Shown: piece by piece, positions 3-28,281 of the stretch | Layout of the letters: each line of letters opens with the position of its first letter | How positions within the stretch are numbered: the stretch's first letter is position 1 | Source: a virus | Virus record (IMG/VR): IMGVR_UViG_3300031965_000002 | Location: 66,082-104,165 of that record | Direction: 5' to 3' (one strand) | DNA length: 38,084 nt | The notes under the pieces: generated by a model | Told to the model about the DNA's origin: nothing | The model's database searches: none | Seen by the model: only the letters and a program-made list of their open reading frames with translations | Position numbers and translations under genes: made by a program

Positions 3-1136
3 GGCAAAGAGTGGTCTTTAGGACAAATGTGGGATTATGGTAAAATAGACAATATCATGTCATGGACCTTCGACGAAAGAGTTGAAGACATGAAAGTAAT
101 TCCTAATTGTAATTTAATATATCAAGGTAAAAGAGAGGTATATAGGGTTGTAACAAAAAGTGGCCACGAAATAGAAGCGACAGCTAATCATCCATTTATG
201 ACCCAAAGAGGATGGGTCAATCTCGAAGAGCTAGATAAAGACAAAGATAAAATTGCAGTAGTGGAGTCTGTTCCATTCTTTGGGACATCAGATGCAATAT
301 CTGAAGATGAAGCTGCTATTCTTGGCTACATGACCGGAGACGGAAACTGCTCCCAGTCGGCAACATTTTTTACATGCGCAAATGAAGAAGTATTGGAAGA
401 TTTTACAAAAAGAATAAGTCGTATAAGCGACAATCTTGTTGTCTTTAATGACCCATGGACAGGCACTAAATCTAAACAATATCAATATAAGATAACATCT
501 AAAGAACGTAAACAGGAAAAATACTATAACGATAAAACCCAAAAGGTGATGAGTCGATTTGCAAAGACAGACTTACAAAAGCTTCTCATTAAGCATGGTC
601 TTATGGGCAAAACATGCCACTACAAAGAGGCTCCAGGGGCACTGTTTGAGTGTCCTAAAAACGTTATAGCAGCATATCTTAAGGCTCTATATAGTTGCGA
701 TGGTGGTATAAGTATTCGAGACAAATCTACAGAAATATCTTTTTATACAGTCAATAAAAAACAAGCGCAAAAAATTCAATCTCTTTTATCAAGGTTTGGA
801 ATATTTTCAACACTAAGACCCAAGGTATCTAAAACAAAGATAAAAATAGAAAACAAATCATATGATAGTATTTCTTACAGAGTGTGTTTTAGTAAATCTT
901 TATATGTTTATAAGTTTCTTAGCGATATCGGTTTTATTGGAAAAGATAAGTCAAAAATTGATTTAGCCCTAAAAGCATCAGATTTAAAACTTAATGCTAG
1001 GAAATCAAAAAATGGATTATGCTTTCAAAAAATAACTAGTATAAATAGTTTTGGTTTAAAAAGAACTTTTGATATACAAGTAAGTAATAATATTTTTGAA
1101 CAAAACTTTACTAGTAATAACTTCCTGGTACATAAC
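3..1136 (+). mobile_element. Intein with LAGLIDADG homing endonuclease in the terminase Walker A motif (N-terminus outside window)
   Basis: Block B EATANHPF; LAGLIDADG-like ILGYMTGDG and LKALYSCDG; block F RTFDIQV; C-terminus FLVHN/S (Asn codon 1134-1136); visibly more AT-rich than the extein. Confidence 0.93.
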
Positions 1137-2687
1137 AGTGGGAAAGATTTTATTGTTTCTATTATGGCTCTTTATGAGGCTATGAGGCTACTTGAGACGC
1201 CTGGCGGGAACCCGTATGCCACATACAATCTTGGTCAAGCTGCTCCGATTACAATTCTTACAATTGCTAACGCTATGCAGCAGGCCAAGATTCTTTTTCG
1301 TGAGATGAAAGAGAAGATTCAGATGAGCCCCTACTTTGAAGACAAAGTAGGAAAGATTACCGATGATAGAATCTATCTTCTTACTCCACATGATAAGGAA
1401 GGTAACAAGAAACAGGCCGAAAGAGGGCTGCCCATGCATCATGGTTCGATTCAGATCGTGGCAGGTCACTCAAACTCCAACTCGCTAGTCGGTCTTTCAT
1501 GTTTCGCTATTCTGTTTGACGAGATTGGTACATATAAAAATACCGCAGGTTCTTCAGGCGGAGATCAGCTTTATCACAACCTCGTTCCTGCAACAAAGAC
1601 ATATGTTCGCAGAGAGCCGGTCCTCGATGAGGGCGGCAATGAAAAGAAGAATGCCAAGGGCGAGATTGAGATGAAGTCGGTTATCGATGGTCGTGTTATC
1701 TGTATCTCGACACCTCGTGGTAAGGAAGGTATCTTTTACGAACTATACAAGAACGCAGATAACGTAGACCATCGTTTTATGATGAGGGCACCGACATGGG
1801 TTGTCAATCCAAACCTACCAAAACATCTTTTGTTGTCTGAATCACCTGACATGACTGATATGAAGTTTGCAATGGAGTACGGTGGTGAGTTCTTTGGTAC
1901 GGCTGGTGAATCATTTTTCAGTCCTGATGATGTAGACAGAGTCTTCCGTAATCACCATTTACCATTCGTGAATCATGGCGTGCCAGGCGTCACTTATTTC
2001 GCCCACTTAGACCCTGCAACATCAAGCCACAACTACGCTCTTGTAATCACGCATCAAGAGGAGAGGCTTGATAGAGAAATAAATAAGCGAGACTATGTTG
2101 TTGTCGTAGATCATATTATGTACTGGTCCCCAACTCCTGACAAGATGATTGTTGTGGACGAAGTTGATGAATATGTAATTGAACTCAATAAACGGTTCCA
2201 CTTCGGCGAGGTTACGTATGACCACTGGAATAGTAAGGCGAGTATACAAAAACTCAGAAAGCATGGTATTCCTGCACGCATGACTCCCTACACAAGGCAA
2301 TATAAGCAGGAGATATATGATAACTTATTTCAGCTAACTATCTCAAAGAGACTTTTATGCCCGAGACACAAGCTTTTAGAGACAGAAATGAAAAACTTGC
2401 AGAGAAAATGGCAGGGCAACAGTTTTAAGGTTATGCCGAAGCCAGACGGCGATTGCACGACGGATGATATTGTCGATGCTCTTGCTGGCGCGTGTTTTAA
2501 TGTTCGTGGTAAGGCTACGCAGGGTTTGCCACAAGGAAAGTTGGTCTCAATGCCAGTATTACCACAAGGGAATAATATTGCATGGCGGTCAATGCAGGGT
2601 ACGCCTTATGGCGTTGGCTCAGGGCAACAAGTCATGAATGATCTAGGTAAAAAAACAAGGGTTCATCCCTTGTGGCATAGGAAATAA
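3..2687 (+). CDS. terL: Terminase large subunit, intein-containing (5'-truncated by window edge)
   Basis: Frame is open from nt 3. After the intein: SGKD (end of Walker A), FAILFDEIG (Walker B), ISTPRGKEG (motif III), and RNase H-like nuclease motifs AHLDPA, YDHWNS and DDIVDALA. Confidence 0.93.
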   Translation, partial: GKEWSLGQMWDYGKIDNIMSWTFDERVEDMKVIPNCNLIYQGKREVYRVVTKSGHEIEATANHPFMTQRGWVNLEELDKDKDKIAVVESVPFFGTSDAISEDEAAILGYMTGDGNCSQSATFFTCANEEVLEDFTKRISRISDNLVVFNDPWTGTKSKQYQYKITSKERKQEKYYNDKTQKVMSRFAKTDLQKLLIKHGLMGKTCHYKEAPGALFECPKNVIAAYLKALYSCDGGISIRDKSTEISFYTVNKKQAQKIQSLLSRFGIFSTLRPKVSKTKIKIENKSYDSISYRVCFSKSLYVYKFLSDIGFIGKDKSKIDLALKASDLKLNARKSKNGLCFQKITSINSFGLKRTFDIQVSNNIFEQNFTSNNFLVHNSGKDFIVSIMALYEAMRLLETPGGNPYATYNLGQAAPITILTIANAMQQAKILFREMKEKIQMSPYFEDKVGKITDDRIYLLTPHDKEGNKKQAERGLPMHHGSIQIVAGHSNSNSLVGLSCFAILFDEIGTYKNTAGSSGGDQLYHNLVPATKTYVRREPVLDEGGNEKKNAKGEIEMKSVIDGRVICISTPRGKEGIFYELYKNADNVDHRFMMRAPTWVVNPNLPKHLLLSESPDMTDMKFAMEYGGEFFGTAGESFFSPDDVDRVFRNHHLPFVNHGVPGVTYFAHLDPATSSHNYALVITHQEERLDREINKRDYVVVVDHIMYWSPTPDKMIVVDEVDEYVIELNKRFHFGEVTYDHWNSKASIQKLRKHGIPARMTPYTRQYKQEIYDNLFQLTISKRLLCPRHKLLETEMKNLQRKWQGNSFKVMPKPDGDCTTDDIVDALAGACFNVRGKATQGLPQGKLVSMPVLPQGNNIAWRSMQGTPYGVGSGQQVMNDLGKKTRVHPLWHRK

Positions 2688-12418: not shown

Positions 12419-13146
12419 TCAAGCAGTCTGACGATTTTCTAGGTTTTGGCGGTAAGAACAAAAGTAAAATACAGAATCAACCTCAAGGTCGAGTTGAAAT
12501 ATCAGCTCCTGACATGGGGCAGATTGGTCAGTTGCGCATTGATGAATACAACGGCCCGCAACCTAATCAAGACTTCTTTGAAGGCGATGAAGTAGAATTG
12601 CTCTCAAGGAGTGGCGCACCGACAGGCCTTCGTGGTACTATCCGCAGATTTGAAGGACTGAGGCAGGGTGTTCCTTATGCTTTTGTAGTTATTGATGAAG
12701 TTACAAGAGATATATTGCCGTTGAATATGCTTCGTAAGGTTCAGAAATTCGCGCAAGGGCGTCCCATGAGCGACCCTTTTGTTATGCCTGAAATCGGCGA
12801 AACACAAGGTGAAGCACAGAAACGAAATTCTCCTGCTTTACAGAAGACCTGTCCTGTATGTCAGTCAACCAACGCACCAGAGGCAACAAATTGTGCAAAC
12901 TGTGGCTCATCATTGGATACGCCATACATGGTTCCTAGACAGCAAAAGCAAAGATTAGCTCAGGTTGGCAGTTATATGGTAAATCCACCTGCTAACCGTA
13001 ATGTTATGCGCCCAACGACTGAGACATTTGAGAGACGAACTAAGAGGCCAACTTATCCAGATTTATCTGATGAACATGCCGATATAATTGACGAAGACCA
13101 TATAAACCAAGTTAGCGAATCTGCCAATGCTCTTGGTTTAGAATAA
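12400..13146 (+). CDS. Protein with SH3-like and zinc-ribbon segments (annotatable from ATG 12514, or a frameshift extension of the upstream gene)
   Basis: Frame open from 12400; contains FFEGDEVELL...GTIRRF and CPVCQSTNAPEATNCANCG; no obvious RBS before 12514. Confidence 0.7.
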   Translation, partial: KKSNGLVKQSDDFLGFGGKNKSKIQNQPQGRVEISAPDMGQIGQLRIDEYNGPQPNQDFFEGDEVELLSRSGAPTGLRGTIRRFEGLRQGVPYAFVVIDEVTRDILPLNMLRKVQKFAQGRPMSDPFVMPEIGETQGEAQKRNSPALQKTCPVCQSTNAPEATNCANCGSSLDTPYMVPRQQKQRLAQVGSYMVNPPANRNVMRPTTETFERRTKRPTYPDLSDEHADIIDEDHINQVSESANALGLE

Positions 13147-13160
13147 GGAGATGAAAAACT

Positions 13161-16100
13161 ATGGCCGGTAAAAAGCCTATCAAGATGCAACTTCCCGACA
13201 AAAACACAAAACGCATTGCTACTGCTGCACGAACTAAAACAGGCGTAACACCAACTCCCAAGGGGGTAGCTCCTTTCGCTGGCCTTGCAGCAAGCACGAC
13301 TGTTTCGATGCCGTTGACTCGTTCTGCTCAATCTATTGGCGGCTCGGGCGCGTTATTTACACAACCTATGTTCTTTTCGCCGCTTCATACTCCTCAGAAC
13401 TGGCAAATTGCGAGCAAAAGACAAGAAGTTTACCAATGGGCGAGGTTCTACTATGAAAATGAGCCCAAGGTAGCCGCAGGTATTGATTTTTATTCGCAGT
13501 TTCCTATCAATGGATTCAAACTTGAATGCAAGAGCAAGAAGATACAAGAATACTTTGATAGACTGTGTGACAAGTTGGACCTTCTACGCATGTTGCGGCT
13601 TATTTCTCATGAGCGGTTCCTTATCGGCGATGTGTTTGCCTTTCTTGAGTTTGATTCGCCAGATACTCGCGGAGAGACCGATATCCCGCCTGATAAATGG
13701 AATCATGCGGATGGAACGATATCCCGTATTATTGTTTTGAATCCCGATTGGGTTGAGGTCTATACAACTCCGCTTGCAGATGACCCAGAAATCGTCATGC
13801 TTCCTGATGATGAACTCAAGAAGATTGTTCAAATGAAGCAGCCTCGCTCCATCTATGACCGTCTTCCCGAGCAAGTTAAGGAACTTGTCGCAGCCGGTCG
13901 TCCTATCCGTTTATCAAATCGTGCTGTTAGTCATATCAAGCACGGCGGCGCTCCTTATGGTGTTTACGGCGAATCACTTCTTCGTCGTTTGTTTACCGTC
14001 TTGGCATACAAGACCAAGCTGATGACGGCTAACTGGATTGTTGCCGAGCGACTCGTTCTTCCCGTTCGTGTTGTTAAGATTGGCGATGAGAAGCGACCTG
14101 CTGGTGAAGATGATATCAATGATGTTCAGCAGCAGTTGGGTGCGGTTGCTAATGATCCGAACCTCACTCTCGTTACTCATCACGCCTTTGATTATGAGTG
14201 GTACGGGGCCTGTCATTCTGCTGACACAGAGATACTTACTCCTGATGGTTGGAAGTTCTTTTATGATCTTTTAGATGATGCTATTGTTGCAACCTATAAC
14301 AAAGAATGCGGACAGATGCAGTGGCAACAGATTGACAAATATCACGAGTATGATTTCAAGTCAACTGATACTTTGAAGATGTATAACTTCAACGCAAGGG
14401 GCGTTGATATCTCTGTCACGCCAAACCACCGCATGCTCGTTGAAAGAAACGGTCAGCTTTGCGAAATTTATTCGCAAGAAGTTAAGCACGGAGATAAGTT
14501 CCTGTCAACGGTTGACTGGGCTGGTCGAGTTCCAAAGAGTCTACCTTATAAGGATGGACCGCTTGCTCATATGGCTCTTGACGATTATCTTGAACTTGCT
14601 GGTTATTATCTGAGCGAAGGTGGCGTCAAGAAAGAGCGAAACAAGAATCTTGCGATTGAGAAGCAGATTCAAGCTTGTTCTGTCGGCCAAAACCGTTCGA
14701 GCCCGATCTATGATTCGATGCGAGAGGTTGTGAGCCTGGCGTATCCTAACTTCTCAGAAAAAGAAGATGACCGTTATAATGATGCATATTGCCATATGAC
14801 GATCAATAGTGTTGAGATTGCTCGTTATCTTGCGGAAGAGTTTGGAGATTGTTCCTCGACCAAGAAAATCCCTCGCTGGATTCGAGACCTTCCTAAGAAT
14901 AAGTTGCAGATTGTTTATGATGCAATGATGGCTGGCGACGGCGATGTTCGTTATGATACTACTCGACCAAGATATCGCTATAGCACTACTTCAAAGAGCT
15001 TGGCGGACCATTTTTCAGAGATAGCATTGAAGCTTGGATATTTCACTTCAACTTCTCGGAGTAAGGGAAGTAATGACAGATGTAAGGATGTCTACCGCAT
15101 TTTTTGGTCCGAGTGGAAAAAAGAAACTCCATTTGAGGTCCGTAAGCAGCATATTTTTCGCGAAGATTATGAGGGCAAAGTTTATTGCGTCAAGGTTCCT
15201 AATAAATGGATTATAACTAGGCGCAATGGTTGTATTACTATTCAGGGTAATTCAGGTAAAATTCATAACATTACGAATGAAGTTGAACTGGTTGGTAAGG
15301 AGCTTCTTGATGGCATGATGCTCAACCAGGCTTTGCTCAATGGTGAGATGGCTGCATATTGTCATTCAGAAGATACTCTGACATTAACTGATTCAGGATA
15401 TAAGAGATATGATGATATAACCGAGGAAGATAAAATTGCTTGCTATAATCCTGAGACAGGAAATATTGAATATCATCATTATTACGAAAAATTCGTATAT
15501 GATTATGATGGGGAAATGGTTAATTTTAACACGGATAAAATAGATATTTGTGTTACGCCTAATCATAGGATGTGGTCTGCTAAAAGAGATAATGATGAAT
15601 TTTCTTTTGTAGAAGCTAAAGACATAAAACGTCGAGCAAAGTTTTTAGGCGCAGTTAATGGATTCGTTGGAGAAGATTCAACTGGTATATCTGTTAATGG
15701 AGAGTATTATAGTATGTCAGATTATTGTGAACTTGCTGGTTTTTTTGTTTCAGAAGGTTCAATAGCCAGAGAAAACAGAGAAAATCGCACAAAACAGATT
15801 ACAACTCTTCATGTTCATCAGAATGCAGACGGTAAGGCTAGGGAGCAGATAGAGTCGTTATTTGATAGAATGTTTAAAACGGGTTATAACAATAACTCTT
15901 CAGTATCTATATATAATCCAAAACTGGCTCAGCATTTTTCTGAAGAGTTTGGACTTAGAGCAGAAAATAAAAGACTTCCAATTTGGTTAAAAAATCTAGA
16001 TCCAGTATTTTTAGAAATAGTTATTAATGCTATGGCGCAAGGCGATGGACATTATAGAAAAGAATCAGATAGGAAAAACGGTAGAATTGCATATTACACT

Positions 16101-17522
16101 TCCAGCGAGCAATTAGCAAATGATTTTGCAGAAATTGCATTTAAGTCTGGTTATGTTACAAAAATAGTCAAAAGAGGAAAACTGGGTTTGACAGGTTATA
16201 AGAATTTTGCTGGTCATCCTTATAAAACCAATCATCAACAATATGTAGTTTATGCATCTAAGGGTTTTAAGGGTCGTATACCTGTATTAGAATCTAAATC
16301 CAAAAAATACAAAAACAGAGAGATAACAAAGAAGTCTTATAAAGGCAAAGTCTATTGCTTTAGTGTCCCATTTGGTCTTTTTGTTACTATGCGCAATGGC
16401 CTGACAACGATTCAGGGTAATTCATCTGCTCAGGTCGGTGTAGAAATGCTTATTCGTCGTCTTGAGTCGTGGAGAAACGAGCTTGCGGACTGGGTAGAGA
16501 AGAACGTTTTCTTGACTGTTGCTAAGATGCAAGGCTTCATCGATGAAGAAGCAACAAAACAGAGTGGTGAGAAATGCTATATCTATCCTAAGATCAAATG
16601 GGATGACCTCAAGCTTCGAGACCCATCTAACCGAATACAACAGGCTATACAGTTAAATCAGAACGGCATTATTTCGAATCAAACTCTTCTTGAGATGTTT
16701 GACCTTGATTATGATCAGGAGATCCAGCGCTTGCGAGAAGAGCAAATTATGGCTGGACCCGCTGGCAATATCATGGGTGGTGGAATGGGCGGAGGAATGC
16801 CAGGCGGTGGAATGGGCGGAGGCATGCCAGGCGGCGACCCGATGGGTGGCGGCATGGGTGGTCCTATGGGCGACCCGATGGGCGGCGGTGGAATGGGTGG
16901 AGCGCCAGGCATGAGCGGAGCACCAATGGGCGGAGGTATAGCCGGTGGCGGCATGGGCGCGACCGCCGAGTCTTCGCCTCAAAAGGTCTATAAAAAAGGC
17001 AAAGCACCTAAAGCGAAAGAGCCTTCTCCTGAAGAACAGATGATGTATCAGCCAAAAACTTTGCAACTAACCAAACCTGAAGCAAAAACTTACAGGATAT
17101 TGAACGATATCAATCCTCCACATCAGTTGTTTGCCCAGTTCAAAGTTCAGGTTCCTGGCGAATCGCAACCTTTTGCTCTTGACTTTGCCTATCCCGATAT
17201 CGGTCTCAATATCGAGGCAGACGGAGAGAAATGGCATACAAGCGTCGAGGACAAGCAATCGGATAACCAGAGAGATGTAAAGCTTGCAAACATGGGTTGG
17301 ACTGTTATCCGGATTAGCGAATCTGCTTTGAATGAAAATGCGGATGAAGTCAAGAGATTGTTGTTCGACAGCATCAAAGAAGCTGCTGCCTTAAGGAGGA
17401 AACATGGCAAATCTTCAACAAATAAAAAAGGAAGATACGTCCAGGCTTCTTATGAAGAGCTTTCGAGTCCTGGAACAATCAGTATTAGCAAGACAGAGTT
17501 CTTGCCCGAGGAACAACCATGA
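13161..17522 (+). CDS. Portal protein with two inteins, a Gly/Met/Pro linker and a C-terminal Vsr/DUF559-like nuclease
   Basis: Portal-like extein (LNPDWVEV, HIKH...YGESLLRR, PKIKWDDL, GIISNQTLLE...DYDQEIQRLREE); located between terminase and protease; about 752 aa after splicing. Confidence 0.85.
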   Translation: MAGKKPIKMQLPDKNTKRIATAARTKTGVTPTPKGVAPFAGLAASTTVSMPLTRSAQSIGGSGALFTQPMFFSPLHTPQNWQIASKRQEVYQWARFYYENEPKVAAGIDFYSQFPINGFKLECKSKKIQEYFDRLCDKLDLLRMLRLISHERFLIGDVFAFLEFDSPDTRGETDIPPDKWNHADGTISRIIVLNPDWVEVYTTPLADDPEIVMLPDDELKKIVQMKQPRSIYDRLPEQVKELVAAGRPIRLSNRAVSHIKHGGAPYGVYGESLLRRLFTVLAYKTKLMTANWIVAERLVLPVRVVKIGDEKRPAGEDDINDVQQQLGAVANDPNLTLVTHHAFDYEWYGACHSADTEILTPDGWKFFYDLLDDAIVATYNKECGQMQWQQIDKYHEYDFKSTDTLKMYNFNARGVDISVTPNHRMLVERNGQLCEIYSQEVKHGDKFLSTVDWAGRVPKSLPYKDGPLAHMALDDYLELAGYYLSEGGVKKERNKNLAIEKQIQACSVGQNRSSPIYDSMREVVSLAYPNFSEKEDDRYNDAYCHMTINSVEIARYLAEEFGDCSSTKKIPRWIRDLPKNKLQIVYDAMMAGDGDVRYDTTRPRYRYSTTSKSLADHFSEIALKLGYFTSTSRSKGSNDRCKDVYRIFWSEWKKETPFEVRKQHIFREDYEGKVYCVKVPNKWIITRRNGCITIQGNSGKIHNITNEVELVGKELLDGMMLNQALLNGEMAAYCHSEDTLTLTDSGYKRYDDITEEDKIACYNPETGNIEYHHYYEKFVYDYDGEMVNFNTDKIDICVTPNHRMWSAKRDNDEFSFVEAKDIKRRAKFLGAVNGFVGEDSTGISVNGEYYSMSDYCELAGFFVSEGSIARENRENRTKQITTLHVHQNADGKAREQIESLFDRMFKTGYNNNSSVSIYNPKLAQHFSEEFGLRAENKRLPIWLKNLDPVFLEIVINAMAQGDGHYRKESDRKNGRIAYYTSSEQLANDFAEIAFKSGYVTKIVKRGKLGLTGYKNFAGHPYKTNHQQYVVYASKGFKGRIPVLESKSKKYKNREITKKSYKGKVYCFSVPFGLFVTMRNGLTTIQGNSSAQVGVEMLIRRLESWRNELADWVEKNVFLTVAKMQGFIDEEATKQSGEKCYIYPKIKWDDLKLRDPSNRIQQAIQLNQNGIISNQTLLEMFDLDYDQEIQRLREEQIMAGPAGNIMGGGMGGGMPGGGMGGGMPGGDPMGGGMGGPMGDPMGGGGMGGAPGMSGAPMGGGIAGGGMGATAESSPQKVYKKGKAPKAKEPSPEEQMMYQPKTLQLTKPEAKTYRILNDINPPHQLFAQFKVQVPGESQPFALDFAYPDIGLNIEADGEKWHTSVEDKQSDNQRDVKLANMGWTVIRISESALNENADEVKRLLFDSIKEAAALRRKHGKSSTNKKGRYVQASYEELSSPGTISISKTEFLPEEQP
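14211..15251 (+). mobile_element. Portal intein 1 (347 aa, LAGLIDADG)
   Basis: A/CHSADTEILTPDGW; VTPNHRM; LAGYYLSEG; AMMAGDG; KVYCVKVP; TIQGN/S. Confidence 0.92.
15360..16421 (+). mobile_element. Portal intein 2 (354 aa, LAGLIDADG)
   Basis: Y/CHSEDTLTLTDSGY; VTPNHRM; LAGFFVSEG; AMAQGDG; KVYCFSVP; TIQGN/S. Confidence 0.92.
16773..16958 (+). repeat. Low-complexity GGGMGGGMPG-type tandem repeat (portal linker)
   Basis: Imperfect repeats of ggtggaatgggcggagg encoding a G/M/P-rich stretch. Confidence 0.9.
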
Positions 17523-17959
17523 CTCTAATCTTTGAACTCATCAAGAAAGCCGAACATACTGGCGGTCGCAAGCCTATCAAGGAGAGGGGCATCAAGTGGG
17601 AAGAGTCATATCACGACAAATCTCTTTCTCTCAAGAAGAAGTTTGATAAACAACTTGGACCCGGTGGTTATTTCAGATGGGGCGGTCACGACTCAACTAC
17701 AAACTCGGATTACTATGTTGTTGTTGGACCTTCGATTCATAAAAAGCAGGGTAAGGTATTTTTCTCAGGCATTAAAAAGATGCCACCCCTTGCAGACCAG
17801 AAAACCAAGACATACTCGCCGTATGGAGAGTATTTTCGTACAATGAATGCTGCTCTCGCTTATGCTAATGATAAGTGGGGTGTTCCAACTCCAAAGGGAA
17901 TGCCAAACTATTCAAAAGAGCAACTTGCTGCTGTGGATATTCCTCAGCACGTTAACTAA
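17519..17959 (+). CDS. Hypothetical basic protein
   Basis: 146 aa; ATGA overlap with portal stop; starts MTLIFELIKKAE. Confidence 0.75.
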   Translation: MTLIFELIKKAEHTGGRKPIKERGIKWEESYHDKSLSLKKKFDKQLGPGGYFRWGGHDSTTNSDYYVVVGPSIHKKQGKVFFSGIKKMPPLADQKTKTYSPYGEYFRTMNAALAYANDKWGVPTPKGMPNYSKEQLAAVDIPQHVN

Positions 17960-19878: not shown

Positions 19879-22800
19879 ATGGGTTTTACGAAACGAGCAT
19901 CAAGCACTGGTAGTCCTATTCATTTAGAGGCCCTTAATGTGCCACAAGGTAAAGAATGGGACTTGATTAATAAAGATTCTCTCATTAAAACAGCATCCTT
20001 ATCCAAAGGGAAGACTATTGATTTGAATGGTTTTAATCTTGAGGCCGCTGTTGAAGAAAGCCCGGACCATCTCTTTGTGAAGGTTTTCGCAATTAAGCAA
20101 GATGAGGTCAATGATAATGGCGATGCCTTCTCCGCTGGTGAACTTAAAAAGGCGACAAGCACGTTTATCGGATGTCCAGTATTCGTTAACCATCAGAATG
20201 ATGACGTTGAAAAAGCTCGTGGTATGGTTGTTCACGCATGGTTTGACGACGAGGCGGGCGGCATTTATTGCATTAACAAAGTTGATAAGACAGCTTATCC
20301 ACAGCTTGCTCGTGGTATCGAAGAAGGTTACATTATCGGATGTTTTCCACCGGATGCTCCTGTTTTAATGGCAGATGGCACTGAAAAGCCCATTGTTGAC
20401 GTTGAGGCTGGTGACGAGGTTTTGACACATCTTGGTAATATTAAAAAAGTTCTTGGCCGTCGCCAGCGAGGATATAAATATCCTTTGTTTAGAATTAAGT
20501 TAGAGGGTATTGAACAACCTCTTATTTGCACTTCTCATCATCATTTGATGGCTTATAAGCTTCCAGAAGATTGTCTTTGTGGATGCGGAGAAAGACTGCT
20601 CGAAACAAAAGACCCGAGAATGACTGCTAAATCATTTGGCAGAAAATTCAAGACTGGTCATAATATGAGAGGTCAATCTGTTCAACACGAAGCTATACAA
20701 AAGACTAAGGCTTGCGATCTGTCGATTGGAGACTTTTTGTTTGAGCCTCATTTTGTCGATGAGAGTGCCGATTCTGTAATTACAGAGGACGAAGCTTTTC
20801 TTATTGGTCTTTTCTTGGCGGAAGGTTCTTTTGAAAAGCGCAATAAAGTCCGCTATGCGGCCATCTTTAATTTTGGTTCCGACGAATTAGAAACACTAGC
20901 TTTTCGTTGTAGTGAGAAATTGGAGAAGGTTTTTAGTCAATATCATTTGCTTCCTAAGACAGATTATTATCCAGATGCATCACAGACTAGGGTATCTCTA
21001 TATGGAAAACCAATTGCTGAATGGTTTTACAAGTGGTGTGGCGAATATTCTGACGGAAAAGCTCTTCATCCAGATTTATTAAAACTTGGAACAGAGAAGA
21101 CCGCCGCCTTACTAGCAGGATACATCGAGGGAGACGGTTACAACGTTAAAAAGAAAACGTATGGAGCTGCAACTGTATCTCCACAATTGTCGAGCCAGCT
21201 AAGGCTATTGTTTAGAAAAATTGGTGTGCGGACGAGATATTCTAATCCAGATAACAAAAATAGATGGGGCTACAAAAAGGTTCATGAACTAACTTTTGGT
21301 CTTACGACTGCTGAATCTTTGCGCGAAAAACTTATTTATAAGCAAGCTGATATCTCTCAATATGAAGCGGCAGATTGGCATGACATAGAAGGCATGACGC
21401 TTCGTCGCATCGAAAGTATCGATGAAATTGATTATGATGGTGTGGTATATGATCTTGAAATTGAAGATGATCATACCTATTGCGTCAATCATATAGCAGT
21501 TAGCAATACATCGATGGGCGCTCAGGTCGGTCATTCTGTATGCTCAATCTGTCATAATAAAGCCCACACTGCCGACGAGTTTTGTACGCATATCAGGAAC
21601 CAGAAGACTCGCAAGTTTCAGATGAGGGCTCATGATTGTAAATATCACGAAAGCTCCGGTAGACCCATAGACGACTGTCCCGTGTGTGGTTGTCGCTCTG
21701 GTGAGAAGAGAGCAAACGCCACTGAGGGTCTCAGGGTCTTCGAGTGGAACTATGATATTAACTTCATCGAAGATAGTTTTGTCGTAAATCCTGCGTGTCA
21801 TGATTGTTTGGTTTGCGATATTCTAAATGTCCCTGCTATTGAGAGCCGTCTTGCATCGAAGGTTGCTGAGTTAGAAAAACTTGCATCTTCATACGAAAAC
21901 CGCATTTCTACGGGCAAGATGGAAAAAGTTGCAGGCAATATGGAAGTTCAGGCCTTGAATGACGCGATGAATCTTATTGAAAAGGTTACTCGTGCGATTA
22001 TGGCTCAGAAACAACAGATAGACATGGAATATGCAAGCGACCTTATCGAGGTTCTTGCAAATATTCAAAGTACGACTGATGAACTTATTGAAATGGGTTA
22101 CAGTCAATTACCCTCGCCCTCGGAGAGTGAAATTATGTTCGGTTCCAATACTGCGGCTTCGCCTGCTGAGGGCGGAGGAGCCGTTCAGGTTGATGACCCT
22201 AATATGCTTGGGGCTCAGCAGCCTGTTGCGCCACCTCAGCCAGGTGGAGTAGAAACTGGAAATTATGGAAATCAAATTGGTACAGTTACCCGCCCAACGT
22301 TTTCCTCCAATAATTTCAGTTCTAAGGAGGAATTTTTGAAAAGAGCAGAGAACATTAGAGATAATCTAGACAGATTGCGCTCTATCGTTGTCGATCAAGA
22401 GCAGTATGAAGTTGCGGGTATGAGTTCGAAAGAAAACAATAAGGAGTCAAGTTCTATGGCTAAGCCTAAAGATAATGAGACCAAGACTGCGGCGGGTCAG
22501 GGTGTTACGCCAGAACAGGCAGAGGTAATCACTCAGAAGCAGTTCGATTCTGCCAACCTTTCTTTGCATGGTCGCCAGGAGGCGCATTATGAGACAACTA
22601 CAGAAGGTGATGAACAAATTGGTGGTTCTGAGAGAGTAAACGACACTACAACCGCCTCGCCTCAAGTTCGTTTTGATAATCCCTACGAGTTTATTACTCA
22701 GGCTCAGTTGGCGGAGATTCAGGATGGATATATTGTTCGCTGGGAATCATATCCCGAGGTAGTTACTGAGAAACAGTGGGACGAGATTAGCCGAGAGGTT

Positions 22801-25800
22801 AGTGGTCGTCTTCCCGAAGACTATACAAATGAGATTACACAGGCTCAGCTAAGAAGCCTGCTTTCAACACATCGTTGGGAAGATCCGGCGACTATTACGC
22901 AAGAGCAGCTTGCTAACCAAGGTTCCACAATGCCGCACGGCGGAGACGCTTCGCGATGGAAGGCTGCTTACACGTTTGATCCCAAGGCTCTTGTTAAGTC
23001 TGCTACGAATGCTGTAGCTGACGCTATTGCCAATTATGGTCTATCCCCAAGCGATATTCAGAAGTCTATTGTTGCTATGACGATTACGCCACAGTCTCAT
23101 ATGAAGGCTGCTTACTTGACTCTTGTCAACGCATTGCCTCAGAAAATTGAAGACCGTGCTGCCGCTCGTGACCGTAGCGCATACTTCAACCGTGTTGCTG
23201 GTTCGAAGTCAAATGACAAGCCAATCAACGGATTCCTTGGCGCTCTTGCTGATAATATTGGTTACGCAAAGGCTGAAGACTTTATCGATGCTATCAAATT
23301 TGTTGTAAATGACAAAAACGTATTTGCTTCTGCTGAGCAGCTTGCTCACAAGAAGCTTGCTTCTGTGTCTGCGCCAGAAGAGATTCTTGATAAGAATGCT
23401 CGCTTTGCTGAGGCGTTCTCCGAGCTTTATGTGGGGGCAAATGATGGTATCTACAAACTTTGTGGAACTATTAGGGAAGACCTGGAAGGTGCTGATCCAC
23501 AAGATCAGCCTGTCTTTTTGGAAACTGTTGTAGCTTACTCTGAGAAAACAGTTGGTAAGCCAATCGTTCTTGCTTCGCTCGAACTTGATGAAGAAAATAA
23601 AACCTTTGAAGCTATTGTCAAGGAAGAGTCTGTTGCCTCTAATGAAGAGATAAAGGCATTCGCCTCGCTCAAGGAAAACAACTTTAAGTCTGCCGAGCAT
23701 CAGTTTGGTGGACCTGAAGAAGAAGATTGGGATGAGCAGTTCGCAGAAAACGCAGCCGATGAAGCTGCACGTAAGGCAGAAGAGAAAGAGAAGCAACAGC
23801 GCGCCGCTTCTCGTAACGAGAAACTAGAAAAGGCCGCTCAGATGATGGGCGGACAGATGCCAACAGGACTCGGTGATGGCATGGGCGGCGGTGCTTCGCT
23901 TCCAACTCCACCTGATGCTGCTGGCGCTCAGCCCGGCCTAGAGAGCATGGATAATGGTATGATGGGGGGCGAATCTGATTTTGCAGACGGCGACCTCGAT
24001 CCAGCCCCTCCCGGCTCAAAGTGCCCTGTCTGTGGTTCTGAGGACGTTGATATCATGGGCGGTCAGGGCAAGTGTAATAACTGTAGCTCTGAGTTCGTCT
24101 TCAAGGTTGACATTGAAGTTACCAAGTGGGCTGACCTTACCCCTGACGAAGAGGGTGGAAATGATATGGAAGGCGAAGGCTTCGCAGTTGATGACGAGGC
24201 TGGCTTCGAAGAAGATATTCCTGTTGCAGCCTTTACTCGCATTACCGACAATGCTCTTAAGAAAATTGCTCAAGCCGGAACAAAGCTTGGTTCGGTCAGC
24301 CCTTATAATGGCTCGACAAACACGGTTCAGGTTTCTGATAACGAATACCATTGTCTCAGCACTGGTCGTCGCTACTCTATCGCTCAGGCGATGAAGGGAG
24401 ACGATTGGTATATGCAGTGGACATGGACCCCGCCCGTCGTTGATAGTTGTCCAAGTTGCCGTCGCTTGAAGAAGACCTTCGCAAGCGCTCTTGAACAGTT
24501 CGGTATGAACGATAGCGAGTTCGAGGCTCTATCTCTTGAAGACCGTGGTAAGGTTATCATCTCGATGAGTAACAAGGGTCTTTTGAATCGTGTCAAGACC
24601 GCAAGCACCGAGTCGGTATTGGCTGATTTCAAGAAGACAGCTTCGCTCGGCGTTGGCGTTGATTTCCCTGTAGAGAACTGCCGTGAGCTTCTTGCTCGTC
24701 GCTTCGGTGAGAATGCAATCGCTCTTAGCGGTCCTGATGAGGGCTCTAACCTTGTTGACTCCGTATGTAAGCGTCTTGCTAAGGCAAGTATCTATAGCGA
24801 TAAGATTGCTGTTAAGATTGCAGAGATTTGGTCCGAGCCTGATGCATGTATCGAGTGTCTCGAAGACTTTATTCGCAGCGGCTTCTCTGCTAAACAGTCT
24901 TCGTTTGTCTGCGATCAACTCAAGACCAAGTATGCTCAAGTTGTTGAAATGCTTGCAGATGAGATTGAGTCTGACCCATTCGATCATGTAGCCCCTGAAG
25001 GCGGCTTCGGCGGATTGGATGAATTTGCTGAAGATGCAACTAGCGTGTTTGATGACGTTGATCCATTTGCTCCTGGCGCTGAGGATGCTGGTGTTATTCA
25101 GATAGAGATTCCTCTCGATGTTCTAGAGAACTTTGATGAAGCAATCGATAAGGCTCTTGGCGAAGACCCTGCTCTTGAAGATCATCATGGTGAGGGCGCA
25201 TTACCTGAAGGCGAGGCGGAAATTCCGCTTCCCGCCGATGCGGTAGACGCTATCGATGAAGTCGCTGACGATGCTCTCGATGCGGCAACCGTAGTAGAGG
25301 ATGCCGTCGAAGAAGGGCCTGTAACTGAGGAGCCAATCGGTGAAAACAGTGACGATGATGGCGACGATGATGGTCCTGATGGGGGCGGCGCTCCTACAAG
25401 CGAGATGGGCTACCCCGAAGGTAAGGAAGAAGATGACGGCACTCAAGTAGTTGAGGGCATGGACTCTAAACCAAAAGCACCTGGAATGGGAGCCTATGCT
25501 AAAAATTCTCAGGGGATTAAGAAGGAATCTTCACAGGAAGTCTTGTATCCCATACAAGAAGAAACCCAGGAGCAGGTCATGCGTAACTCGGAGGCTTTCA
25601 AGCCAGGCAAAATTAGCAAATCCCACAAGGTAAGCCTTGATTTGAGTGCTGTTCAGGCCTTGCTTGCTAAGCACGCTAGCGAAAGCACAGTTAAGCAAGT
25701 AAACGTGCAAGATAAGCCTGAGATCGAGCCCATTTCCAATGTAAGCAAGTCTCAGATGGGTCATGAAGAGAAGCTTTCTCTTGAAGACCCAACAGCTCCT

Positions 25801-26721
25801 TCAGTAGGAACTGGCGCAACAATGGGCAAGGAGCCCGATGATATCGTTCCTACCGATTCGCCAACCGTTCCACACGGAAACAGTGAGATGGGCCATGAAG
25901 CAGATCAGGGCTATACCGCTGAGGGTGGCAATGAAATGACTGGTGGCGATCAGGGTGCCGGCAACTCAAAGGCTGCTCATATTGCAGACCAAGTAGTTAA
26001 AACAAGCGGCATGGTCACTGACCTTGCAGACCGTATTATTAAGAGTGCTGATAAGGTAAATGAGGCAAAGCCAGTTTCGGATGATGAGAGCGTTGCTCCT
26101 ATCTCTAAGAACGAGGATCATCCTCACACGCCAGAAGGTAGCAAGATAAAACCATTTGAGTCGTCTGACCATGCTGAAACGGATAATATTCCAGAAGCAG
26201 GCTCCGGCGCTTACATGGGACATGAAGAAGAAAGTATTGGAGCTGTGCCCAAGGCACCTGAGCATCAGCCTGATATCCCATCTGGCGGTGGTTCCAATGC
26301 TAACTATGATAAAAATGACAAGTATTCTCCCGAAAAGCAGGAGAATATCAAAGGCACGGTCATCGCTGGTGGCGATGAGGAGTCTTTGGCAACCCGCAGA
26401 GCCGAAGCTATCAAGGTAGCGGCTCGTATGCTTCAAGCACAACTGATCAAGGCGGACGCAATGCCCGCTAAGGTAGCTGAGCTAGAACGATACGATGTTC
26501 CGCAAATCCATGACTTCGAAAGAGCTATGTTTGGGGTTGTCGAGAAGGGACTCGATACCGTGGCGCGGGGGACAGAGAAGCCCCTGGTTATCTCGGAAAG
26601 CAGCAATAGACGAGATGCCGGAATGGAGCTAAGCGCTCAAATCCAAAGCCTCTTTAGGCTTGACGGCGAGAACCGCCTTGCTGCTGAAGATGAGATTGCC
26701 CAAATGAGGCGTCTACGGTAA
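19879..26721 (+). CDS. Prohead maturation protease fused to a very long scaffold/core polyprotein, intein-containing
   Basis: N-terminal domain has NDNGDAF, PVFVNH (His), G|TSMG (Ser) and IEDSFVVNPA, typical of the HK97/assemblin-fold protease; followed by about 1600 aa of acidic, repeat- and Zn-ribbon-containing sequence; lies directly before the decoration and capsid genes. Confidence 0.8.
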   Translation: MGFTKRASSTGSPIHLEALNVPQGKEWDLINKDSLIKTASLSKGKTIDLNGFNLEAAVEESPDHLFVKVFAIKQDEVNDNGDAFSAGELKKATSTFIGCPVFVNHQNDDVEKARGMVVHAWFDDEAGGIYCINKVDKTAYPQLARGIEEGYIIGCFPPDAPVLMADGTEKPIVDVEAGDEVLTHLGNIKKVLGRRQRGYKYPLFRIKLEGIEQPLICTSHHHLMAYKLPEDCLCGCGERLLETKDPRMTAKSFGRKFKTGHNMRGQSVQHEAIQKTKACDLSIGDFLFEPHFVDESADSVITEDEAFLIGLFLAEGSFEKRNKVRYAAIFNFGSDELETLAFRCSEKLEKVFSQYHLLPKTDYYPDASQTRVSLYGKPIAEWFYKWCGEYSDGKALHPDLLKLGTEKTAALLAGYIEGDGYNVKKKTYGAATVSPQLSSQLRLLFRKIGVRTRYSNPDNKNRWGYKKVHELTFGLTTAESLREKLIYKQADISQYEAADWHDIEGMTLRRIESIDEIDYDGVVYDLEIEDDHTYCVNHIAVSNTSMGAQVGHSVCSICHNKAHTADEFCTHIRNQKTRKFQMRAHDCKYHESSGRPIDDCPVCGCRSGEKRANATEGLRVFEWNYDINFIEDSFVVNPACHDCLVCDILNVPAIESRLASKVAELEKLASSYENRISTGKMEKVAGNMEVQALNDAMNLIEKVTRAIMAQKQQIDMEYASDLIEVLANIQSTTDELIEMGYSQLPSPSESEIMFGSNTAASPAEGGGAVQVDDPNMLGAQQPVAPPQPGGVETGNYGNQIGTVTRPTFSSNNFSSKEEFLKRAENIRDNLDRLRSIVVDQEQYEVAGMSSKENNKESSSMAKPKDNETKTAAGQGVTPEQAEVITQKQFDSANLSLHGRQEAHYETTTEGDEQIGGSERVNDTTTASPQVRFDNPYEFITQAQLAEIQDGYIVRWESYPEVVTEKQWDEISREVSGRLPEDYTNEITQAQLRSLLSTHRWEDPATITQEQLANQGSTMPHGGDASRWKAAYTFDPKALVKSATNAVADAIANYGLSPSDIQKSIVAMTITPQSHMKAAYLTLVNALPQKIEDRAAARDRSAYFNRVAGSKSNDKPINGFLGALADNIGYAKAEDFIDAIKFVVNDKNVFASAEQLAHKKLASVSAPEEILDKNARFAEAFSELYVGANDGIYKLCGTIREDLEGADPQDQPVFLETVVAYSEKTVGKPIVLASLELDEENKTFEAIVKEESVASNEEIKAFASLKENNFKSAEHQFGGPEEEDWDEQFAENAADEAARKAEEKEKQQRAASRNEKLEKAAQMMGGQMPTGLGDGMGGGASLPTPPDAAGAQPGLESMDNGMMGGESDFADGDLDPAPPGSKCPVCGSEDVDIMGGQGKCNNCSSEFVFKVDIEVTKWADLTPDEEGGNDMEGEGFAVDDEAGFEEDIPVAAFTRITDNALKKIAQAGTKLGSVSPYNGSTNTVQVSDNEYHCLSTGRRYSIAQAMKGDDWYMQWTWTPPVVDSCPSCRRLKKTFASALEQFGMNDSEFEALSLEDRGKVIISMSNKGLLNRVKTASTESVLADFKKTASLGVGVDFPVENCRELLARRFGENAIALSGPDEGSNLVDSVCKRLAKASIYSDKIAVKIAEIWSEPDACIECLEDFIRSGFSAKQSSFVCDQLKTKYAQVVEMLADEIESDPFDHVAPEGGFGGLDEFAEDATSVFDDVDPFAPGAEDAGVIQIEIPLDVLENFDEAIDKALGEDPALEDHHGEGALPEGEAEIPLPADAVDAIDEVADDALDAATVVEDAVEEGPVTEEPIGENSDDDGDDDGPDGGGAPTSEMGYPEGKEEDDGTQVVEGMDSKPKAPGMGAYAKNSQGIKKESSQEVLYPIQEETQEQVMRNSEAFKPGKISKSHKVSLDLSAVQALLAKHASESTVKQVNVQDKPEIEPISNVSKSQMGHEEKLSLEDPTAPSVGTGATMGKEPDDIVPTDSPTVPHGNSEMGHEADQGYTAEGGNEMTGGDQGAGNSKAAHIADQVVKTSGMVTDLADRIIKSADKVNEAKPVSDDESVAPISKNEDHPHTPEGSKIKPFESSDHAETDNIPEAGSGAYMGHEEESIGAVPKAPEHQPDIPSGGGSNANYDKNDKYSPEKQENIKGTVIAGGDEESLATRRAEAIKVAARMLQAQLIKADAMPAKVAELERYDVPQIHDFERAMFGVVEKGLDTVARGTEKPLVISESSNRRDAGMELSAQIQSLFRLDGENRLAAEDEIAQMRRLR
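20341..21507 (+). mobile_element. Intein (389 aa, LAGLIDADG) inserted just before the protease TSMG motif
   Basis: G/CFPPDAPVLMADG; CTSHHHL; LIGLFLAEG; LAGYIEGDG; VYDLEIEDDHTY; IAVSN/T. Confidence 0.92.
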
Positions 26722-27396: not shown

Positions 27397-28281
27397 ATGG
27401 CTTACACCAAAAATAACCTTTCTGATGAGCAGAAAGAAATGATCATTGCACAGGCTCTTGAGACTGAGGAAGGCCGTACGGCTCTTGCTCAGGCCATGGT
27501 CGAGCCCATCCGTCGTTCGCTTGAGTACCAGGCTGTTGGTCGCAAGCTTCTCATGGTTGACGAGTTGCCCCAGGGCGCTCTCGCTCGTTACGAGCGCGAC
27601 CTTGCTGCTATTGCTCACGTCGTTGCGCGTCGTGGCGCTGTTCCGGACCAGATTCAGGAAGGCGAGGAAATCCTCGTTCCCACTTGGGAAATCGCCGCTA
27701 ATCCAACGATTCGCCTTTCCGAGATCAAGGCTCGCCGTTTCTACATTGTAGACCGCGCGCAGATCAAGGCTAAGGAAGCAATCCAGAAGGAAGAGGATAC
27801 TCAGATTTTCGGCGCTCTCATTGCTGCTGCTGACAACCGTGCGGCTGCTGGCTCTGCTCAGATCGTTACCGATATGGGCTCGCTTTCGACTACTGCTCTT
27901 AACAGCGCATTCCGTTACATCGAGCAGCACGACCTCGTGGCAACCAAAATCGTTGTCCACGCTAACCGTTACGCAGATATCCGTACCTTTGGTAAGGATT
28001 TTTACGATGAAGCTACAGTTCGTGAAATTCTCACGACTGGTCTCTACGGCCACCTTTGGACCGCAGACATCCATGTTTCGTCGCGTATGCCAACGAACAC
28101 TGTTCTTGTAGTGGCTTCGCCCGACACTGTTGGCGCGTTCCCAATTCGCCAGGACATCACTGTTCTTCCTGCTGACGACCCTAAGAAGCTCCGCCTCGGC
28201 TGGGTCATCTACGAAGAAGTCGGCATCGCGGTCATCAACGACTACGCAATCTCGAAGATTGAGGTCTCTGAGGCCAGCTAA
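27397..28281 (+). CDS. Major capsid protein (HK97 fold)
   Basis: 294 aa; PIRRSLEYQAVGRKLLMVDELPQG, IQKEED, GHLWTADIHVS, LGWVIYEEVGIAVIN; strong codon bias; AAGGAG RBS; followed by a terminator. Confidence 0.88.
   Translation: MAYTKNNLSDEQKEMIIAQALETEEGRTALAQAMVEPIRRSLEYQAVGRKLLMVDELPQGALARYERDLAAIAHVVARRGAVPDQIQEGEEILVPTWEIAANPTIRLSEIKARRFYIVDRAQIKAKEAIQKEEDTQIFGALIAAADNRAAAGSAQIVTDMGSLSTTALNSAFRYIEQHDLVATKIVVHANRYADIRTFGKDFYDEATVREILTTGLYGHLWTADIHVSSRMPTNTVLVVASPDTVGAFPIRQDITVLPADDPKKLRLGWVIYEEVGIAVINDYAISKIEVSEAS

Follow-up and report, generated by a model that had tools for sequence, protein, structure and literature searches.

This analysis concerns a phage portal protein gene that appears to carry a nuclease domain at its C-terminus, tethered to the portal by a low-complexity segment. 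The gene lies in a 38,084-nucleotide stretch of viral DNA, hereafter the window, which corresponds to bases 66082-104165 of the IMG/VR virus record IMGVR_UViG_3300031965_000002. The record itself is 104 kb long with a CheckV completeness of approximately 21%, and the sequencing runs that contain the stretch are labelled soil metagenome, with no RNA run listed among them. The portal gene (13161..17522, plus strand, stop codon included) is a single uninterrupted open reading frame (ORF) for a precursor of 1453 amino acids (aa). Removal of two inteins leaves 752 aa, as compared with 711-785 aa for intein-free relatives. Its first segment, the N-extein (aa 1-350; 13161..14210, plus strand), is collinear with intein-free relatives such as the 757-aa gene of locus L004. 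These 350 aa matched the PHROG 'portal protein' families phrog_16240 (E 1.6e-32) and phrog_2833 (E 2e-9), and a further portal match, to phrog_533 (E 1.1e-3), was found on the same ORF at aa 1141-1202. By tblastn, the N-extein aligned with gp14 of Bacillus phage G, an annotated portal, at 33% identity over 85% (E 5e-48), and the surrounding genes follow the order of a head module (large terminase, portal, prohead protease, major head protein). An earlier reading of this DNA, here called the original prediction, had named the protein a portal, and the phrog_16240 match, the gp14 match and the head-module gene order bear this out. On these grounds the ORF is a portal gene interrupted by inteins, and its source is an uncultured megaphage of the phage-G-like kind, approximately 0.5 Mb in size.

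The two inteins each contain a LAGLIDADG endonuclease. Intein 1 (347 aa, aa 351-697; 14211..15251, plus strand) runs from CHSADT to TIQGN with Ser at the +1 position, was recognised by PF14528 and PF14890, and had its ends set against the intein-free L004 gene. Intein 2 (354 aa, aa 734-1087; 15360..16421, plus strand) runs from CHSEDT to TIQGN, again with +1 Ser, and its site recurs among relatives at approximately residues 389-392 in L004 coordinates. The original prediction had placed a portal core ahead of the repeats; the portal assignment stands, but the core region contains these two inteins, which had been missed. Downstream of intein 2, the C-terminal extein of the portal core (16422..16748, plus strand) forms a block conserved in all relatives, overlaps the phrog_533 match, and closes with the last conserved helix, ...DLDYDQEIQRLREEQI. 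By its position this helix may represent the portal crown.

Beyond the core, the reading frame continues without interruption into the segment of interest. In the portal frame, positions 16773-17522 read MGGGMGGGMPGGG..., then TKPEAK...ALDFAYPDIGLNIEADGEKWH...DNQRDVKLANMGWTVIRISE, followed by the stop codon. The first part of this belongs to a Gly/Met/Pro-rich, low-complexity tether, measured as 70 aa (aa 1197-1266; 16749..16958, plus strand); the claim that in-frame G/M/P repeats lead to the nuclease was thus upheld. A basic junction motif, VYKKGKAPKAK (16986..17018, plus strand), follows, and then the 116-aa predicted DUF559/Vsr-fold endonuclease domain (aa 1301-1416; 17061..17408, plus strand), identified by Pfam, by profile searches of the PDB, by structure prediction with AlphaFold2 (AF2) and Foldseek, and by residue conservation. 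The protein ends in a variable tail of 37 aa (aa 1417-1453; 17409..17519, plus strand) that is weakly conserved in the alignment and modelled with a low predicted local distance difference test score (pLDDT).

The family assignment of the domain rests on several kinds of comparison. Pfam family PF04480 (DUF559) matched the 249-aa C-terminal piece at 31.4 bits and the whole ORF at 28.6 bits, against a curated cut-off of 20.6, and a six-frame search of the contig gave 33.3 bits. The related profile PF18741 (MTES_1575) scored 35.8 bits on the domain, slightly under its cut-off of 38.2. A profile built from 53 distinct relatives and searched against the PDB found 3HRL (E 1.5e-6) and 3R3P (E 4.5e-6), with the chains of Vsr matching weakly (E 0.24-0.89). 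An AF2 model made from the same 53-sequence alignment has pLDDT values of approximately 82-95 over the domain core and approximately 50 over the tail and the N-terminal lead-in. When this model was compared by Foldseek, it matched PvuRts1I 4oq2 (E 2.9e-4) and also AbaSI; 3R3P aligned with a template-modelling (TM) score of 0.76 of the target, 3HRL with 0.79 of the target at a root-mean-square deviation of 2.9 A, and Vsr (1cw0/1vsr) with 0.52-0.54 of the target. Automatic annotation already flags the domain, since PF04480 is precomputed on these portal proteins and JGI names one of them 'very-short-patch-repair endonuclease'.

Conservation of the putative active site points in the same direction. 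In the window the catalytic set comprises E1307, D1341, E1352, D1354, H1359 and D1368. In domain numbering, E28, D62 and H80 are each present in 178 of 178 distinct domain sequences, E73 in 176, D89 in 175 and D75 in 172. As given in the available portion of PMC3239194, the catalytic residues of Vsr are E25, D51, H64, H69 and D97, and the homing lineage adds an acidic residue at the position of Vsr F62. HMM alignments, read together with that portion of PMC3239194, place E28, D62, E73, D75, H80 and D89 of the domain at Vsr E25, D51, the F62 position, H64, H69 and D97, respectively. Judged from sequence and model, the domain is of the DUF559/Vsr-like PD-(D/E)xK fold with an EDxHD-type active site, and the alignments indicate that it retains every residue used for catalysis in Vsr and I-Bth0305I. 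The original prediction of an intact Vsr/DUF559 PD-(D/E)xK motif set was therefore confirmed by a Pfam score above cut-off, by the predicted fold and by conservation across the 178 sequences; the contrary outcome it had named, a domain without this fold, is at odds with a model that matches 3HRL, I-Bth0305I, PvuRts1I and Vsr.

Narrower identities for the domain were considered and set aside. It is not well described as Vsr proper, a T:G mismatch nickase: Pfam returned no Vsr family on the portal ORF at E up to 1, and Vsr chains gave the weak E values listed above. Nor does it behave as a mobile EDxHD homing endonuclease, as all complete members have it in single copy, it co-diverges with the portal, and a Pfam scan of the portal ORF found no NUMOD and no other DNA-binding or targeting family beside the nuclease core. 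An intein-borne nuclease was rejected because Hint, intein and LAGLIDADG matches are confined to aa 351-1087, and the domain is C-terminal with no extein beyond it; the statement that no intein termini surround the nuclease was accurate. Finally, an internal start that would yield a free nuclease was rejected because the Met-Met pair ahead of the domain is not conserved in the alignment.

The segment that joins portal and nuclease varies in length. In the window, the DNA of the tether is partly made of tandem units of 12, 15 and 27 bases. Across the 178 distinct relatives the stretch between core and domain measures 50-188 aa (median 84) and consists of 28% Gly, 12% Pro, 10% Ala and 9% Met. 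The basic pattern [KR][KR]G[KRSGH] occurs in 105 of 177 distinct junctions, at a median of 23 aa ahead of LTxPE; elsewhere in the same proteins it occurs 0.01 times per 45 aa. Sister portals that lack the domain, including phage G gp14, already have low-complexity C-terminal tails rich in Gly, Pro, Met and acidic residues, so the nuclease was added onto the end of an existing flexible tail. By this comparison of sequences, the tether predates the nuclease. Its (G-G-M)-like repeats are reminiscent of the flexible Gly-Gly-Met C-terminal tails that line the cavity of GroEL.

Having defined the fusion in the window, we determined how widely it is shared. IMG/VR was scanned with the portal N-extein and the domain as queries, which returned 76 and 10 loci, and a query with the domain alignment returned 80 more. 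When all ORFs of 300 aa or more in these loci were compared with both queries, the N-extein of the portal had 148 matches and the domain had 147. All five ORFs with the N-extein only are cut by the 3' end of their contig, and all four with the domain only are cut at the 5' end. Complete fused portal ORFs number 74 distinct sequences from many metagenomes. In locus L066 (IMGVR_UViG_3300045125_000158) the portal frame switches several times and the domain is kept in another frame, owing either to sequencing error or to decay of the copy. The domain is present in L076, and the L046 sequence is cut off within the linker. A HMMER search with the N-extein through 1.84 billion cluster representatives yielded 1019 proteins at E <= 1e-3, and of the best 150 of these, 111 have the domain and 39 do not. 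Twenty-eight of the 39 end within the core, an intein or the linker. Three of these (P0064, P0123 and P0127) end in or just past the linker, through truncation or as real variants, two of them with frameshift-like tails. The other 11 of the 39 are complete portals of a sister group that lacks the domain, all with 33-43% identity to the query. Retention of the fusion by homologous portals, one of the checks proposed with the original prediction, was thereby observed, as was the DUF559 match by HMM search that it had also proposed.

The domain-bearing portals form one group. A FastTree phylogeny was built from a 226-residue portal block with 119 rows (107 with the domain and 12 without, the outgroup phage G being one of the 12); five domain-bearing rows were omitted because their block match was split or short. 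On this tree the distribution of the domain is explained by one change, on a branch with SH-like support of 100. Each of five complete genomes within the clade (460-548 kb, 98-100% complete) has exactly one DUF559 match, located within the portal ORF, and none of five complete sister genomes (379-504 kb), phage G among them, has any. We conclude from the tree and these genomes that the fusion is a clade-defining character gained once. A tblastn search with the 249-aa C-terminal piece found no match at E <= 1e-3 in 50,697 GenBank phage records; the phages of that collection, cultured or deposited, thus include none with a closely related portal tail. The nearest relative of the window, L004, has 97% protein identity and the same architecture at a synonymous divergence (pS) of approximately 0.6 per site. 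It therefore represents a separate lineage, not the same genome assembled again. Over positions 16524-17539, one of two contigs obtained from Logan run X2 matches the window with zero differences, which agrees with continuity across the repeat; run X1 gave no contig, perhaps because of filtering. As the X2 contig may come from the same sample, the related assemblies constitute the independent support for the fusion.

The domain also appears to have been inherited together with the portal to which it is attached. For this comparison, domain and core blocks were extracted block-wise from the intein-bearing portals. Pairwise distances for the domain correlated with those for the N-terminal portal block (Mantel r 0.81, p 0.001) to an extent similar to that of two portal-core blocks with each other (0.76). 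The ratio of nonsynonymous to synonymous substitution rates (dN/dS) was 0.004-0.16 for the domain, in seven pairs with estimable dS, and 0.007-0.06 for the two core blocks where dS was estimable. One and the same domain is present across the 178 distinct sequences, with no swapping. These sequence comparisons indicate that the domain is inherited vertically, under purifying selection as strong as that on the portal core.

A second gene shares the distribution of the fused domain. Directly behind the portal lies an orphan gene that we term dn146 (17519..17959, plus strand), whose ATG overlaps the portal stop codon (ATGA). It encodes a basic protein of 146 aa with an isoelectric point (pI) of 9.65. 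In 66 of 76 loci the gene that immediately follows the portal is a homologue. Of 80 loci with sister portals, the fused domain is confined to L196 and L202, as is dn146. In complete genomes dn146 occurs once in each of the five members of the clade and in none of the five sister genomes. As the fused domain and dn146 both have a single origin on the tree, this counts as one event of co-occurrence and not as many independent ones. The mean column identity of dn146 is 46%, versus 40% for the nuclease domain. Its fold is predicted confidently (pLDDT 86.7). The model gave no Foldseek match in the PDB at E <= 0.001, a best Z of 4.1 in a wide VIA-align search, and a best score of 0.79 against the ESM Atlas, to unnamed viral clusters. 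The sequence matched nothing in Pfam or PHROGs. A profile search collected 513 proteins, and among the 120 listed, every name given is 'hypothetical' or uninformative. Members of the dn146 family also form the N-terminus of longer ORFs in L057:11217-13016 (600 aa) and L059:10073-14401 (1443 aa). At NCBI, the member P0213 is listed as a hypothetical protein from the metagenome-assembled genome (MAG) of a 'Candidatus Asgardarchaeia archaeon'; it may derive from a megaphage whose genome was binned with that of an archaeon.

The remaining head genes of the window complete the module. Upstream of the portal lies the intein-bearing large terminase, TerL (3..2687), whose post-intein part aligns collinearly with annotated large terminases over 88-90% of its length; its domains went unrecognised by Pfam and by PDB sequence search. 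The possibility that the portal nuclease substitutes for a lost terminase nuclease found no support, as there is no sign of a loss at the level of this collinearity. Directly upstream of the portal, a 210-aa ORF (12514-13146) has a weak zinc-ribbon match to PF12773 (E 4.6e-4, under cut-off), and 27 of 76 loci have a conserved counterpart of it ahead of the portal. Downstream, an ORF of 2280 aa (19879..26721, plus strand) has an N-terminal head-maturation-protease domain (phrog_18299, E 2e-8; phrog_2774) split by an intein, with intein and LAGLIDADG matches at aa 153-540. The rest of this ORF is very long, acidic and of low complexity, with CxxC pairs that resemble those of zinc ribbons, and the whole is probably a protease-scaffold fusion. 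The major head protein lies at 27397..28281.

Inteins are a recurrent feature of the portal gene, which is an intein hotspot with five recurrent sites, at residues ~96-100, 113-118, 347-354, 389-392 and 657 in the numbering of the 757-aa L004 protein. Their occurrence is sporadic (0-4 per portal gene), and the precursors reach 1869 aa in the loci and 3003 aa among the cluster representatives. It is generally found that inteins favour conserved functional sites. In L035, L043, L058 and L063 an intein of approximately 365-385 aa, with Cys at +1, is inserted inside the E|xDG catalytic motif of the nuclease (…hE | C…HN | CDG…); in these four loci the nuclease domain hosts a selfish element and is not part of one. 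A different arrangement was seen in three other viral contigs (L085:4389-6416, L086 and L087:4408-6471), in which DUF559 serves as the endonuclease within an intein, PF04480 scoring 31-35 bits in Hint/intein blocks. The Vsr-like intein endonuclease of L085-L087 is in frame, unlike the split and antisense cases described earlier in the available part of 10.1101/2025.01.02.630785. In the window, TerL (3-2687) and the protease ORF (19879-21500) each also carry a LAGLIDADG intein, so that three essential head genes within 27 kb are intein-interrupted.

What, then, might a nuclease do at the end of a portal? The original prediction had offered DNA-end processing, packaging quality control or an injected effector, each of which is a hypothetical role. 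Portals are dodecameric, and in solved portals the C-termini lie on the capsid-interior side. Given this orientation, up to twelve nuclease domains would be present in the capsid lumen, and the nuclease probably sits inside the virus head. The explanation that we favour, and hold tentatively, is a housekeeping role in cis, in which the tethered nuclease acts on the phage's own DNA at the portal vertex. In such a scheme, the nuclease domains, twelve at most, would surround the inner opening of the DNA channel on tethers approximately 70-190 residues long, and the tether would confine the nuclease to DNA near the channel. There it would cut or nick phage DNA when packaging finishes, or before or at ejection. 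The outcome would be end trimming or nicking, which would make the domain a functional analogue of the T4-like gp4 'head completion' nuclease. A homologue of T4 gp4 is described, in the available portion of PMC7824862 (citing Benler et al. 2020), as a virion-associated nuclease of the restriction endonuclease (REase) fold whose DNase activity is required for packaging. We rank a role in cis above that of an injected effector because the domain shows no swapping, is constrained as the portal core is, and has the precedent of T4 gp4.

Several observations weigh against a role in cis. None of the five complete sister genomes, phage G included, has a DUF559 match, and head assembly of the phage-G type can therefore proceed without one. 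A nuclease immersed in the packaged genome would have to be restrained, and no means of restraint is apparent. From the capsid side, moreover, the domain may not reach a DNA end that is held in the channel. Divergence is faster in the domain than in the core (mean p-distance 0.55 versus 0.39-0.41), and two of its acidic residues are occasionally replaced (D75 in 6 of 178 sequences, E73 in 2 of 178). The activity, virion presence and location of the domain are all inferred. The gp4 protein is a separate polypeptide of the TnsA-like REase subfamily (available part of PMC7824862), so that the analogy is functional only. Lastly, a lack of domain swapping is compatible with a conserved injected enzyme as well.

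Such an enzyme is the subject of the nearest alternative, which we regard as possible but rather doubtful. Here the nuclease would enter the prohead as part of the portal, the prohead protease would free it within or after the tether, and the released domain would be ejected with or ahead of the genome, its target being host, plasmid or competitor DNA, or the entering phage DNA that it would process. There are precedents for this arrangement: PBECR RNase, 2H phosphoesterase and InPase domains are fused to portal or MuF proteins and proposed to be injected (in the portion of PMC5512222 at hand), and MuF-toxin fusions adjoin portal genes (likewise in part of PMC5576092). The locus offers some of the necessary parts as well. 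The portal is followed, 2.4 kb further on, by the coding sequence of a head-maturation-protease domain, and 63 of 76 loci have a homologue of this N-terminus downstream; a cleavage site could lie in the long low-complexity tether or the semi-conserved basic junction (105 of 177); the nuclease retains its catalytic residues; and the co-distributed, translationally coupled dn146 gene occupies a position typical of an immunity or inhibitor gene. Set against this, no known or recognisable cleavage site was found, the virion would hold twelve copies at most, and no targeting or DNA-binding module was recognised beside the nuclease core. The basic dn146 protein (pI 9.65) resembles no known inhibitor. 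MuF- and portal-fused effectors are polymorphic or varied, to judge from the available portions of PMC5576092 and PMC5512222, and the 178 distinct sequences of the portal domain, unlike polymorphic toxins, show no domain polymorphism. The sister phages that manage without DUF559, and the unexplained restraint of a nuclease beside the packaged genome, count against an effector too.

We also considered that nuclease and dn146 are a co-acquired two-gene module that adds a head-maturation step in this large clade of half-megabase phages, a proposal that we judge unlikely. It would have a portal-tethered nickase or endonuclease of Vsr type working on the phage chromosome from within the capsid. Nicking of the incoming DNA might relieve the torsional strain of a 0.5-Mb genome, or the nuclease might instead prepare the DNA end that leaves first, and the small basic dn146 protein would control the nuclease. 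The literature returned by our searches describes no portal-borne DNA-processing enzyme inside the capsid.

It is distinctly improbable that the domain is a homing-type endonuclease, whether domesticated or still selfish. On this account, a free-standing gene for a Vsr-like homing endonuclease would have inserted after the portal gene and, without a start codon any longer, come to be translated as the portal tail; unassembled portal protein would cut the DNA of co-infecting relatives in the cytoplasm and so favour the linked head genes. The closest solved relatives of the domain do include an EDxHD enzyme, I-Bth0305I; DUF559 nucleases do serve as intein endonucleases in L085-L087; and the portal gene is, with its five recurrent intein sites, a hotspot for selfish elements. 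The distribution of the domain is the opposite of that of a mobile element: every complete member has it, a single change accounts for it on the tree, there is one copy per genome, and its divergence follows that of the portal. Inteins in this gene, unlike the domain, are sporadic (0-4). In addition, no NUMOD or sequence-reading domain was found by Pfam, and dN/dS is as low as in the portal core.

Vsr-fold domains are known to bind distorted DNA, and a domain that only grips DNA, for instance the first- or last-packaged end near the portal, would be well placed at the inner channel mouth, which suits an anchor, with a basic patch ahead of it. We nonetheless consider a non-catalytic role very improbable, as binding alone would not keep E28, D62 and H80 in all 178 sequences and E73, D75 and D89 in 172-176 of them. 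An artefact of assembly or gene calling across the GC-rich repeat, the other contrary outcome named with the original prediction, has a negligible probability: the repeat is low-complexity DNA, L066 is frameshifted and P0064, P0123 and P0127 stop in or just past the linker, two with frameshift-like tails, but the fusion recurs in dozens of independent assemblies, including 74 distinct complete fused ORFs and five complete genomes, and L004 has the same architecture despite a pS of approximately 0.6.

Comparison with characterised systems places the fusion among several partial precedents. The DUF559 protein of known structure, 3HRL (NGO0050 of Neisseria gonorrhoeae), has a motif series in common with the portal domain, LTxxE...DF...ExDG..H...RD..L...G..V.R. 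Known DUF559 members are small stand-alone bacterial proteins or helicase tails, whereas here a 70-aa tether attaches the domain to the portal, as the C-terminal tail of a virion protein. I-Bth0305I of Bacillus phage 0305phi8-36 (3R3P; PMC3239194, in the portion available) is like the portal domain in its Vsr-like core, its E, D, H and D residues and its acidic residue at the F62 position. The phage enzyme, as described there, differs in being intron-encoded and mobile, with a long target conferred by its N-terminal NUMOD; the portal domain lacks a region of this kind, is not mobile and is inherited with the portal. E. coli Vsr (1VSR, 1CW0) resembles the domain in fold and in the aligned positions of the catalytic Asp and His, but it has Phe62 and His64 where the portal domain has Glu and Asp, and the sequence match is weak.

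Among virion proteins, the portal- and MuF-fused effectors (PMC5512222, PMC5576092, both available in part) share with this fusion the placement of an enzyme on a head-vertex protein of a terminase-portal phage, and they were the sole kind of portal-enzyme fusion met in the literature searched. By those accounts they vary among relatives, whereas the portal nuclease is invariant across a large clade. The portal fusions described in the available text of PMC5512222 carry PBECR RNase, 2H or InPase domains, and the present one differs in its portal family (phage G type) and in its Gly/Met/Pro tether. T4 gp4 (PMC7824862, in part) resembles the favoured role in cis as an REase-fold DNase of head and vertex assembly that is needed for packaging or morphogenesis; it is a separate protein of a TnsA-like subfamily, and the likeness to the portal nuclease is functional, with no homology claimed. 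The nearest cultured portal is gp14 of Bacillus/Lysinibacillus phage G (NC_023719), which shares the Gly/Pro-rich low-complexity C-terminal tail. The gp14 protein (648 aa) has no nuclease domain, and the phage G record has no DUF559 or dn146 match anywhere. It has been detected in virions by proteomics and cryo-EM, according to the available part of 10.1101/2024.12.16.628780.

The fusion of an enzyme to a portal is thus known as a kind, at least from the accessible portion of PMC5512222, and a Vsr/DUF559 domain on a phage-G-type portal with an orphan gene partner appears undescribed. 'Vsr' and 'DUF559' each have 0 occurrences in the main text of PMC5512222, and 'Vsr' has 0 in the main text of PMC7824862, although the supplement of either paper may list the architecture. 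Our literature searches, which were mostly at the level of listings and abstracts, turned up no paper describing a portal with a fused Vsr/DUF559 domain.

Portals are usually treated as passive or sensing rings, with the cutting done by the terminase outside the capsid. If the nuclease is attached to the portal on its inner side, the largest phages include a widespread group that would process DNA within the head or deliver a nuclease with the genome, and either answer would inform how genomes of 0.5 Mb are packaged and launched. Such a role, if shown, would be the first function assigned within DUF559, a large family that is uncharacterised. With a domain that is small and expressible, and with intein-free orthologues such as the 757-aa L004 gene, the question is amenable to testing even with no host in culture. 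With five recurrent sites, one of them in the active site of the nuclease, the portal gene is in addition a rich natural system for the biology of inteins.

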